The notes under the pieces are model-generated. The model did no database searches, had not been told where the DNA came from, and saw nothing but the letters and a program-made list of their open reading frames with translations. A stretch of 63,396 nucleotides of DNA, counting the filler. It is 10 parts of 10 records of this genome, joined end to end, with 100 filler letters (N's around TTAATTAATTAA, not from the genome) between each part and the next. Parts side by side here need not be neighbours in the genome. Positions count along the whole stretch, not along the records: positions 21,425 to 26,437 come from SRR11831585_1065; 9 more parts are not named here. One strand, written 5' to 3'. The position numbers were made by a program, and so were the translations under genes. Of the stretch, positions 21,657-23,791 are shown piece after piece (position 1 is the first letter of the stretch; the number at the start of each line of letters is the position of its first letter).

Positions 21657-22564
21657 ATAGCGACGTCTCCTTGGGGATTGAAAACAAAAACAATAATACA
21701 ACAAGTATGAAACAGAAGGTAGGTGGCAGGGGCGGAACAGGAAAACGCATGAGGGCGCTTCCTGGGGGAGATGCCTGGTATCTTTAGGGTTCAGTTTTGA
21801 GATCGGGAATTTTTGTACATTAAGTGCATTATTTAATCAATTGAAACGCGTAATGGATTGATTTTATCAGCAACTATCGCGTTTAAGTTGTCGATCATAT
21901 TTGAGTTGTCTCATTAAGGTCGAATCCCCTGAAAGCGGCGTATAACGTAGGAGTTCCCCTCTATAGCAATAGGTAAGGCTGTTCAAAAAAGGCTTACCGT
22001 ACAATAATTCGCTATATCCAGACGGCCCCCCTTGTCATACAAGCTCGTAAGCGGCCCTGACGGCCTGTCAATGCGGTACTGCCCTGTCGGGACTGCTCTA
22101 CCCACATAAGTTTCTACATAGCTTGAAGCTGGATGGGGAGGTATTACGGCTTTAGCCGTAATACTTTCTTCGTCCTCGCAGCGCTGACAGTTTTCAGGGA
22201 TCAAATTTAGGTCCGCCATACACTCCGTAAAGACTCTGTCAGTTCACAGGTATTACCTAGTGAAGACGTATCATAAAATGAAAACTGTAGTTGGGTAGTT
22301 GCTCCCCCTCACGGCATGCAGGGGCTGAGGGGGAAAATTTCCTTATCTTGTTGTTGCTATTTCTGGCTTAGTCAGTTTTGAATTTTGCTTCCTAAGCAAT
22401 AATCCCCTCACCGCAACAATCGTTCTTCTACACTAATAAGATCCGAAAAAAGGTAAAACCGGAACTTAATGAAATTACGGAGAATTTGACTGATATCCAC
22501 TACCCCATTCTTCCGGCGTGCTATCTATACAGGCTGGTACATCTCATTTAGTCCGGAGGTTGTT

Positions 22565-22855
22565 ATGGGCGTCAAAATCACAGGTTTAGACAAAATGCAG
22601 AAACAGCTAAAAGAGGTTGAGAGAGCAACGGAGGCCTTAAACGGAAGTTATGATGTTCGTTTTGATGCTAACGATCCTAGCAGCATTGAGAACGCAATTC
22701 AGGAAGCCTACTCCATGGTGGACGAACGCGCTTCTGGTTATGCCACTAATCCTATGGTCAGTCCATTAATCGAACACATGAAAGAAAATCTGCGCCAACA
22801 GATTCTGGACAGTGCAGAACAACAAAGACAGGAGAGCGGACAGGATGGCGATTGA
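22565..22855 (+). CDS. Hypothetical 96-aa acidic, helical protein; putative partner of the TIR protein
   Basis: Strong RBS GGAGG at 22555-22559; overlaps the next gene by 11 nt. Confidence 0.85.
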   Translation: MGVKITGLDKMQKQLKEVERATEALNGSYDVRFDANDPSSIENAIQEAYSMVDERASGYATNPMVSPLIEHMKENLRQQILDSAEQQRQESGQDGD

Positions 22856-23744
22856 TATCTTTCAGTCACTTAAAAATTGCGTATTCGACCTTCAGCGCGC
22901 TGACGTTCAGAACTATCAGCAACCTCTTAAGCAATTGGCCCGGCTCTTGAACTCAGAGAATCTGCAGTCAGTTAATGCACATCTGACCCGCAATGTTGAA
23001 CTTGATACCTTTCTGGCCAGGAGTGAAGATACTGAATCCAGCATGGCTGGTTCCGCTGTTCTACAGTGGCCTGATGAGCCCGCTGATATTTTGGGCCTGA
23101 AGTTGCTGCTGATCGAGAAAATGGCAGACGATAACAATTTTTCCTTTAATTTCTGTCATACATTTTTCTATGATCGAAACATTATTGAATCCATTCGAAA
23201 ATTCACGTCGTCATTAGTTGCCCCGTTCGTGCGCGATTACCAGTTGTATGTGGAAAACCAACATGATCCTGAGCCTGCAGTGTTTCGGCCGGTTTCCCGA
23301 AAAATTTTTATTGTTCATGGCCATGATAATGATGCCCTTCAGTCTGTTGCCCGTTTTATATCCCGGATAGGTCTTGAGGAAATCATTCTTTCAGAACGTC
23401 CTGACGGCTCCAGGACGATTATCGAGAAATTTGAAGCAGAGTCAGGGGATGTCAGTTTTGCCATCGTGCTGATGACGCCCGACGATAGCGGCAGTGCTCT
23501 GGCATCTGAAAGCACACGTCTCCGCGCACGCCAGAATGTCCTGTATGAGCTCGGATATTTCGCCGGGAAGCTTGGACGCGGGAAAGTACTTGTACTCAGG
23601 AAGGGAGATATCGAAATCCCTTCAGATCTTGCCGGGGTTCTCTATACCGAGCTTGATGAGCATGGTGGATGGAAACGCAAACTGCTGAGTGAGCTTGCGT
23701 ATGCCGGTGTTCCTTTTGACAAGGATAAAGCATTAAGCGCCTGA
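22845..23744 (+). CDS. TIR-domain protein (CAP12/Pycsar-type TIR, PF10137-like) with unrecognised ~150-aa N-terminal domain, 299 aa
   Basis: C-terminal motifs KIFIVHGHD, TIIEKFE, FAIVLMTPDD, RARQNVLYELGYF and EIPSDLAG; likely ATG at 22845 after GGAG. Confidence 0.9.
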   Translation: MAIDIFQSLKNCVFDLQRADVQNYQQPLKQLARLLNSENLQSVNAHLTRNVELDTFLARSEDTESSMAGSAVLQWPDEPADILGLKLLLIEKMADDNNFSFNFCHTFFYDRNIIESIRKFTSSLVAPFVRDYQLYVENQHDPEPAVFRPVSRKIFIVHGHDNDALQSVARFISRIGLEEIILSERPDGSRTIIEKFEAESGDVSFAIVLMTPDDSGSALASESTRLRARQNVLYELGYFAGKLGRGKVLVLRKGDIEIPSDLAGVLYTELDEHGGWKRKLLSELAYAGVPFDKDKALSA

Positions 23745-23762
23745 TCTCCTTCATTTAGTAAG

Positions 23763-23791
23763 AAAAAGGCCGCTAAGCGGCCTTAATTTTT
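23763..23791. terminator. Bidirectional intrinsic terminator between the TIR gene and pifA
   Basis: AAAAAGGCCGC-TAA-GCGGCCTTAATTTTT hairpin with A and T tails on either side. Confidence 0.8.

Follow-up and report, generated by a model that had tools for sequence, protein, structure and literature searches.

What would a TIR domain do on a plasmid that carries no cyclase to serve it? TIR NADase effectors normally depend on a cyclase, an Argonaute, a nucleotide-binding leucine-rich repeat (NLR)-type ATPase or a retron. On the F plasmid, beside the T7-exclusion gene pifA, a gene for a 96-residue protein, yuaX, runs into a gene for a 299-residue protein with a C-terminal TIR domain of the CAP12/Pycsar type (hereafter the TIR protein, its N-terminal half being called the N-domain). 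We analyzed this pair in a window of 63,396 nucleotides, the whole stretch of joined contigs at hand, in which an F fragment occupies positions 21425..26437. A note made from the letters of the window (the sequence-only reading) had proposed a stand-alone pair in which the small protein inhibits, or senses for, the TIR effector, and all computational tests at our disposal speak for it. Our preferred reading, to which we give a probability of about 0.6, is an abortive-infection module without a cyclase, made up of two components, yuaX and the TIR gene. Within it, a bound regulator or sensor of the TIR protein is the best reading that we can propose for YuaX.

yuaX accompanies full-length TIR genes

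Both genes came out as they had been described: the small frame with its ribosome-binding site (Table 1) and, on the plus strand, a 299-codon frame from an ATG at 22845 to a stop at 23744, overlapping yuaX by 11 nt (22845-22855). An alternative GTG start at 22812 would give 310 residues; the alignments of homologues and the RefSeq annotation begin at ATG 22845. The expectation that the two products would be annotated as hypotheticals held, RefSeq naming the small one "hypothetical protein" and the large one (WP_000963206) "nucleotide-binding" or "TIR domain-containing protein".

That the two genes belong together is borne out in other genomes. Eighty genomic loci were taken, and all six-frame open reading frames (ORFs) in them were searched with a hidden Markov model built from YuaX homologues. 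A YuaX homologue lies directly upstream, on the same strand, in 47 of the 48 loci with a full-length TIR-protein match (E 5.7e-55 to 6.2e-21), whereas the 32 loci whose match starts at residue 94 or beyond, and is thus essentially confined to the TIR domain, are all without YuaX; YuaX therefore accompanies the N-domain and not TIR as such. The full-length relatives, with 44-53% identity that includes the N-domain, come from Pseudomonas, Vibrio, Halomonas, Xanthomonas, Agrobacterium, Methylobacterium and others. The spacing from the end of the YuaX stop codon to the TIR start is -11 to +2 nt in all 42 unfused pairs, as is typical of translational coupling. Furthermore, three alphaproteobacterial isolates (L040, L044 and L046) have YuaX, N-domain and TIR in one ORF of ~405 residues, and YuaX is fused ahead of the N-domain in 24 of the best 150 N-domain representatives. 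Because permanent fusions are frequent, a built-in regulatory or sensing subunit is favored over a freely degradable antitoxin. No third conserved gene was found among the two nearest ORFs on each side of the pair in 43 loci. The TIR gene appears to be frameshifted in two loci (L048 and L055).

The TIR protein combines a Cap12-like TIR domain with an all-helical N-domain

The motifs on which the TIR assignment had been based (IFIVHGHD, TIIEKFE, FAIVLMTPDD, RARQNVLYELG and IPSDLAG) are all present in the translation, and PF10137 matches residues 153-271 with an E value of 3.7e-37 (127.4 bits against a gathering score of 24.7). Residue E235, which we take to be the catalytic position of the TIR domain, is invariant in 24/24 and 39/39 sequences of two alignments. 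A profile of 39 homologues retrieved, among solved structures, the Cap12 TIR-STING chains 9lmq (4.1e-9) and 7un8 (3e-6) and the PycTIR chain 8jsj (0.0016), and the Glu of NVLYELG is aligned to the Glu of NVVFEFG in 7un8. The AlphaFold2 model of the TIR protein (mean predicted local distance difference test score [pLDDT] of 86.1; predicted template modeling score of 0.50) consists of helices at 2-139, a low-confidence linker at 141-147 and then the TIR fold, whose top matches were TIR-STING fibres (Foldseek E 1.4e-4; VIA Z 14.4, with a root mean square deviation of 2.9 Å for 129 residues on 151-290 against 7un8_A).

The N-terminal half had been described as not recognizably STING, cyclic nucleotide (cNMP)-binding or SAVED. 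Accordingly, residues 1-150 match no Pfam family at E <= 0.1, the N-domain matches no Pfam, PADLOC or PHROG family, and the model makes it all-helical.

YuaX belongs to PF27363, a Pfam 38.1 family that goes by this name in the clusters of the ESM Atlas and is precomputed on 93 of 96 homologues of the small protein, among the matches listed. The Pfam copy used for our local scans is without the PF27363 model, and local searches of Pfam, PADLOC, NCBIfam and PHROG left the F protein without a family; its best E value against PDB sequences was 0.27. Across 36 aligned homologues, the Pfam 2025 copy gave scattered subthreshold matches only (DUF3801 in 2/36), PADLOC assigned F YuaX to no family and at most 2 of the homologues to any one family, and no DNA-binding family was recognized in Pfam scans of F YuaX and these homologues. 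In the model of a natural fusion, YuaX folds into three helices (6-25, 39-60 and one from residue 64) with a block pLDDT of 94-97. Many YuaX fragments of 55-110 residues are also on record.

YuaX is predicted to dock on the N-domain

Modeled together, each with its own alignment, the two F proteins reached an interaction prediction score from aligned errors (ipSAE) of 0.61 (0.61, 0.64 and 0.60 in three runs) against 0.17 for the best of three controls, so that the pairing envisaged by the sequence-only reading passed. The ipSAE mark is reached by 116 of 157 solved complexes and by 2 of 215 mismatched pairs, counts that hold roughly, own alignments having been used here. The partner pLDDT is at least 80, and contacts agree to at least 91% between runs. 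The predicted contacts involve YuaX residues 36, 38-39, 41-42, 78, 81, 84-85 and 88 and TIR-protein residues 10, 13-14, 17-18, 122, 126-127 and 129-130, the latter being in the first and last helices of the N-domain, beside the linker. Four of the 10 interface residues on each side are invariant or nearly so (P38, I41, A84 and R88 in YuaX; Q17, I126, P127 and R130 in the TIR protein), about twice the number expected by chance. The model supports binding of YuaX to the N-domain.

By analogy with the Cap12, PycTIR and SPARTA TIR effectors, we infer NADase activity, auto-inhibition, a trigger and phage protection for the pair, which might work as follows. Both proteins would be made from one mRNA by coupled translation, and YuaX would dock on the first and last N-domain helices, next to the linker to the TIR domain. 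The resulting composite helical module may keep the TIR domain inactive and act as the trigger sensor. On infection, a phage-derived cue would disturb this module, be it the loss of YuaX or the binding of a phage protein to either of the two parts; the TIR domains would then assemble and hydrolyze NAD+, and the infected cell would stop. The proposed arrangement, in which a helical regulatory part, fused or separate, restrains a toxic enzyme until a cue arrives, resembles that of the fused or two-part toxin-antitoxin sensors of the CapRel SJ46 type and of auto-inhibited TIR NADases of the SARM1 type. The effector and regulatory domains of these belong to different families, and the likeness is in the logic alone.

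The N-domain is joined to exchangeable tails

A profile of the N-domain only (39 sequences) matched 503 of 1.84 billion representatives at E <= 1e-3 and 68 at E <= 1e-30. We classified the tails by Pfam scan of the 76 N-domain representatives of at least 225 residues from the best 150. PF10137 follows the N-domain in 31, TIR_2 in 4 (P0226, P0233, P0269 and P0356), Hypoth_Ymh in 1 (P0241) and DUF4145 in 1 (P0248); 2 have chance-level matches and 37 have none. The Hypoth_Ymh tail also matches PADLOC Aga_HEPN and PD-Lambda-3_B. Unnamed tails include a group of 10, mostly YuaX fused, with ~135 residues and a Gly/Ala-rich hydrophobic end; a group of 8 with ~120 residues and a hydrophobic end; one pair with two predicted membrane helices; and several singletons. 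Since tails so varied stand behind the same N-domain, this position appears to be an effector slot, with the N-domain, usually together with YuaX, as the constant part.

In one protein of 411 residues (P0279), DUF2513 (residues 12-98) stands ahead of the N-domain and TIR, at the place that YuaX takes in other fusions, which suggests that the front partner of the N-domain is exchangeable too. At L085:621-863, an unrelated 80-residue ORF with two Cys pairs lies upstream of a YuaX-less N-domain protein with a hydrophobic tail; this ORF has the look of a zinc ribbon and could be an alternative partner.

These observations invite a bolder, composite proposal, which we put forward only tentatively and would not wager on as a whole. 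YuaX and the helical N-domain would be a portable, hitherto unnamed module for sensing phages, which evolution has coupled to four or more types of killing domain (CAP12-TIR, TIR_2, HEPN-like and membrane tails). The F copy would be a second abortive-infection system, active but unnoticed next to PifA in laboratory strains with F (XL1-Blue, JM109, TG1, NEB Turbo and Stbl4), present also in the host of the BASEL phage collection and silently filtering the phages seen on "male" E. coli.

The pair stands beside defense genes and without a cyclase

The neighbor scan took the two nearest ORFs per side in 43 loci, 168 ORFs in total, for Pfam, and the 85 nearest ORFs for PADLOC (E <= 1e-10). The clustering with defense genes that had been anticipated from PifA is seen elsewhere: PADLOC matched 10 of the 85 nearest ORFs, in 10 of the 43 loci, as PifA (L003), Old/GajA (L012 and L032), ThsA (L017), ThsB (L040 and L046), WYL (L019 and L033), IetS (L044) and PDC-M48A (L029). 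Pfam families among the neighbors include Mrr, BglII, HsdR, HsdM, NACHT, SLATT, S_4TM, Cas1, HipA, Schlafen-AlbA2, integrases, resolvases and transposases. The 168 ORFs include no SMODS or guanylate cyclase and a single RVT_1, which is a second neighbor in L010.

The sequence-only reading had also noted that the contig has no CD-NTase, PycC or reverse transcriptase. Taken alone, this says little, because the F piece is only 5 kb within a chain of contigs; what stands is that a profile search of the whole F record gave no match to SMODS, Guanylate_cyc or RVT_1. Together with the neighbor scan, this agrees with the description of the pair as stand-alone and cyclase-less.

Two loci deserve mention in their own right. 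In an uncultured betaproteobacterium (L017:1674-8983), the pair is flanked on one side by an HsdR gene of type I restriction and on the other by ThsA (6951-8390) and a TIR_2 gene (8396-8983), which together look like a complete type I Thoeris pair. In L020, a second CAP12-TIR gene (7743-8660; 306 residues) is found ~850 nt downstream of the pair, with only one YuaX match in the locus and Cas1 upstream.

The block of yuaX, the TIR gene and pifA (at least 80% of 22400-26100) is present in 874 of 72,556 plasmid records, mostly from Escherichia and Klebsiella (~86-87% identity in Klebsiella) and also from Salmonella and Enterobacter. The pair is matched by 589 of 5,426 complete E. coli genomes, and 258, or about one genome in twenty, hold at least 80% of the 1.4-kb query. 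Insertion sequence activity in IncF plasmids presumably cuts the yuaX-TIR region frequently.

Weighing the preferred reading and its rivals

Several points weigh against an abortive-infection module. The success of the complex model expresses the model's own confidence rather than binding, and the folds of the N-domain and YuaX were barely probed, because TIR/Rossmann-like matches on the TIR part filled the lists of the fold searches (Foldseek against the PDB and two VIA-wide searches). The link between YuaX and the N-domain is not universal. One 3-kb contig of a metagenome-assembled genome (L045) has a full-length TIR protein without YuaX, and no YuaX was detectable in any of the four metagenome loci that match the N-domain profile and belong to the eight-member hydrophobic-tail family; in that search, the single-protein query P0350 gave nothing, and a query with the family alignment gave 10 loci, including these 4. 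Incomplete copies are common, as only 258 of the 589 matching E. coli genomes hold at least 80% of the query. A collection of 50,697 phage records contains no full-length pair, four records matching the TIR part only and none YuaX. The RNA evidence described below consists of low-depth contigs from one study, in which DNA carry-over is countered only by an empty upstream stretch. The F plasmid, moreover, has been studied for decades, and F+ strains plate many phages normally. T7 exclusion on F was reportedly mapped to pifA alone, and we take cloned pifA to be enough for it.

The BASEL data cannot reveal an effect of the pair, because, in the accessible text of their description, a host with F(pifA::zeoR) served both for isolating the phages and as the reference for plating efficiencies (PMC8594841). 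This construct is described there as replacing pifA alone and therefore probably keeps the yuaX-TIR pair. According to the same text, attempts at a functional ectopic pifA construct did not succeed, and F had to be used as a whole (PMC8594841). PifA might depend on the yuaX-TIR pair, or pifA on its surroundings on F.

A small upstream gene with an 11-nt overlap into a larger one is the classic layout of a type II toxin-antitoxin locus, and a labile YuaX antitoxin could oppose a TIR NADase toxin, the main role on F being post-segregational killing. The predicted binding of YuaX to the TIR protein, the position on a plasmid 4 kb from ccdAB and the upkeep of the block in 874 plasmid records are all compatible with plasmid addiction. 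However, most of the relatives taken are on chromosomal contigs of unrelated Proteobacteria, the permanent fusions among the best 150 representatives are ill suited to a separately degraded antitoxin, YuaX lacks a recognizable DNA-binding domain, and defense genes adjoin nearly a quarter of the loci (10/43). We thus regard addiction as the main function as unlikely, bearing in mind that addiction and defense roles are not mutually exclusive. Control by a second messenger is less probable still. As proposed for stand-alone CBASS-type effectors (CBASS being the cyclic-oligonucleotide-based antiphage signaling system), the N-domain with YuaX could bind a nucleotide made by the host, another defense system or the phage; the TIR class is indeed that of the CBASS and Pycsar effectors, and a stand-alone TIR-SAVED effector reportedly answers a host signal, according to a preprint. 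An all-helical N-domain that matches no STING, SAVED, cNMP-binding or other Pfam family, the lack of any cyclase family among the 168 neighbor ORFs and the presence of a protein partner in 47 of the 48 loci point instead to control at the protein level.

Two further explanations appear very improbable to us. TIR domains produce signals in Thoeris, as stated in the accessible part of a preprint (10.64898/2025.12.03.692087), and the pair adjoins Thoeris genes in L017, L040 and L046, so the TIR protein might make an NAD-derived signal for YuaX or for the product of an unlinked gene. Yet relatives have HEPN-like or membrane-type tails, which are effectors, in the place of TIR; a soluble helical protein of 96 residues, often fused ahead of the TIR protein, is an unlikely effector; and there is no conserved effector gene nearby, with Thoeris neighbors in only 3 of the 43 loci. 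The pair could also serve a function outside conflict, such as plasmid housekeeping or regulation with a TIR-like fold, given that no phenotype is known to have been assigned to it and that about half of the E. coli copies are incomplete. Its patchy spread over alpha-, beta- and gammaproteobacteria beside integrases, restriction-modification and defense genes, the invariant Glu at the catalytic position and the swapping of effectors behind the same N-domain argue against such a role.

Relation to known systems

The closest described relatives of the TIR domain are the Cap12 effectors of CBASS (TIR-STING and TIR-SAVED), which share the PF10137 class, provide the best solved matches (9lmq and 7un8) and have the catalytic-position Glu in register. 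Cap12 effectors deplete NAD+ and act as assemblies, fibres according to the titles of the matched entries. In contrast to them, the F pair is without a CD-NTase, matches no STING or SAVED family, has a protein partner in place of a nucleotide signal and carries its TIR domain C-terminally, behind a helical domain. With 42 and 36 bits from the Cap12 equivalogs of NCBIfam, against a cutoff of 450, the TIR protein is no Cap12 orthologue. The TIR domain also matches the PADLOC model of PycTIR (1.1e-9), from the pyrimidine cyclase system Pycsar, in line with the match to 8jsj; unlike Pycsar, the pair has no PycC cyclase on F or among the neighbor ORFs, and no cNMP-binding domain was detected in it. 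It differs from Retron-TIR in that RVT_1 is absent from F and lies near the pair in 1 of 43 loci (L010), and from Thoeris in that ThsA adjoins it only in L017 and ThsB-like genes only in L040 and L046, no gene except yuaX being conserved.

The sequence-only reading had guessed that the system might already be catalogued. This holds for the TIR part, which corresponds to the single-gene candidate PDC-S35 of PADLOC v2, and not for the small protein, which fits no PADLOC model. Five PDC-S35 models match the TIR protein (E 2.3e-65 to 4.6e-42), more strongly than the generic CBASS TIR effector models of PADLOC, and PADLOC recognized PifA in the neighboring gene. The best PDC-S35 matches cover residues 142-298 only, with profile positions such as 112-261 of 264, and one model starts at residue 102; moreover, the candidate is defined as one gene, which places the YuaX partner outside its definition. 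N-domain proteins without a TIR tail (P0315, P0366, P0253, P0277 and P0255) match PDC-M14B weakly (2.5e-9 to 6.7e-6), and the helical domain is therefore probably already part of another, multigene candidate. By contrast, the F protein gives no PDC-M14B match at E <= 0.1, and the PDC-M14 models find nothing among the 36 YuaX homologues.

Literature searches found no text on PDC-S35, WP_000538310, WP_000963206, PF27363 or "YuaX domain" and nothing relevant for yuaX/yuaY or for F/IncF with TIR. Identity of the pair with an old genetic locus, "pifB", was considered and dropped, the literature having given only Wolbachia pif genes. In its accessible text, a systematic survey of TIR proteins is described as discarding CBASS, Pycsar, prokaryotic Argonaute, Avs-context and stand-alone TIR proteins (10.64898/2025.12.03.692087).

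New TIR defense candidates are common. What we propose as new here is that a TIR NADase abortive-infection effector, of which only the TIR half is catalogued, as a PADLOC candidate, has a small protein as its partner, fused to it in some cases, and a helical sensor domain that is portable. As the sole conserved companion is a protein of 96 residues, sometimes fused, the sensing logic would be compact and easy to dissect, and the pair itself is compact, testable and carried by a very widely used plasmid. The helical module ahead of several unrelated effector types would amount to a family-level design of "sensor plus swappable effector" and could reveal a new mode of phage recognition. The F copy resides in standard cloning and phage-display strains; given its presence in laboratory strains, in the 258 E. 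coli genomes and in the 874 IncF-type plasmid records mentioned above, any activity would matter for the host-range data of phages and for work with phages on clinical isolates that carry plasmids.

Transcript and source of the F fragment

Contigs from RNA-Seq (three libraries of one study) cover both genes at a depth of ~2-9. They begin at 22419, 22420 and 22453, the depth being zero over 22100-22404 in all three libraries, and the junction of the two genes is spanned by a contig in two of the three runs (22620-23058 in X21 and 22697-22938 in X23). These data are compatible with a bicistronic mRNA whose start lies ~110-145 nt upstream of yuaX, with the reservation that contigs can neither prove a start nor exclude DNA. 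A promoter scan gave no site in the leader region 22405..22564; by eye, AATAAT at 22398-22403 is a putative promoter element.

Table 1. Coordinates of the yuaX-TIR pair and adjoining features in the window
Feature	Position	Strand	Basis or remark
Likely 5' leader of the yuaX-TIR transcript	22405..22564	+	Starts of RNA contigs
Shine-Dalgarno GGAGG of the small gene	22555..22559	+	5 nt ahead of the ATG at 22565
yuaX, 96-residue helical protein, predicted partner of the TIR protein	22565..22855	+	ORF; RefSeq WP_000538310, "hypothetical protein"
All-helical N-domain, residues 1-139, predicted YuaX docking site, proposed sensor/regulator	22845..23261	+	AlphaFold2 helices 2-139, block pLDDT 77-97
CAP12/Pycsar-type TIR domain, residues 153-299, proposed NADase effector	23301..23741	+	PF10137; PDC-S35; Cap12 structure matches
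Glu235 codon	23547-23549	+	Alignment of homologues
Two-way intrinsic terminator common to the TIR gene and pifA	23766..23784	both	8-bp stem, 6 G-C pairs, 3-nt loop, T-runs on both strands
pifA, 741 residues, KAP P-loop NTPase, T7-exclusion gene	23794..26019	-	PADLOC PifA E 2.9e-290; KAP_NTPase E 3.2e-43

The TIR gene and pifA are convergent, and the terminator lies between their stops (23744 and 23794), as had been claimed; pifA is a neighbor outside the yuaX-TIR pair. The window consists of short contigs chained by N44-TTAATTAATTAA-N44 spacers, with nine junctions within 10318-60422 (for instance, 21325-21424 and 26438-26537). Because it is such a chain, the pieces beside the F fragment, like the one with a gene at 19870-21288, have no physical linkage to it. 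The assignment of the piece to F is confirmed by its full-length alignment to NC_002483 40076..45089, with one gap in 5,014 columns. Over 22400..23800, identity is 100% both with F and with F or F' DNA in XL1-Blue, JM109, TG1, NEB Turbo, Stbl4, Origami2 and others. The sole difference from the F reference is a G (F position 44838) that is absent at ~26187, in the part of pifC at 26021-26437 on the minus strand and ~55 codons before the end of that gene; it represents either a frameshifted pif repressor in the source strain or an assembly error.

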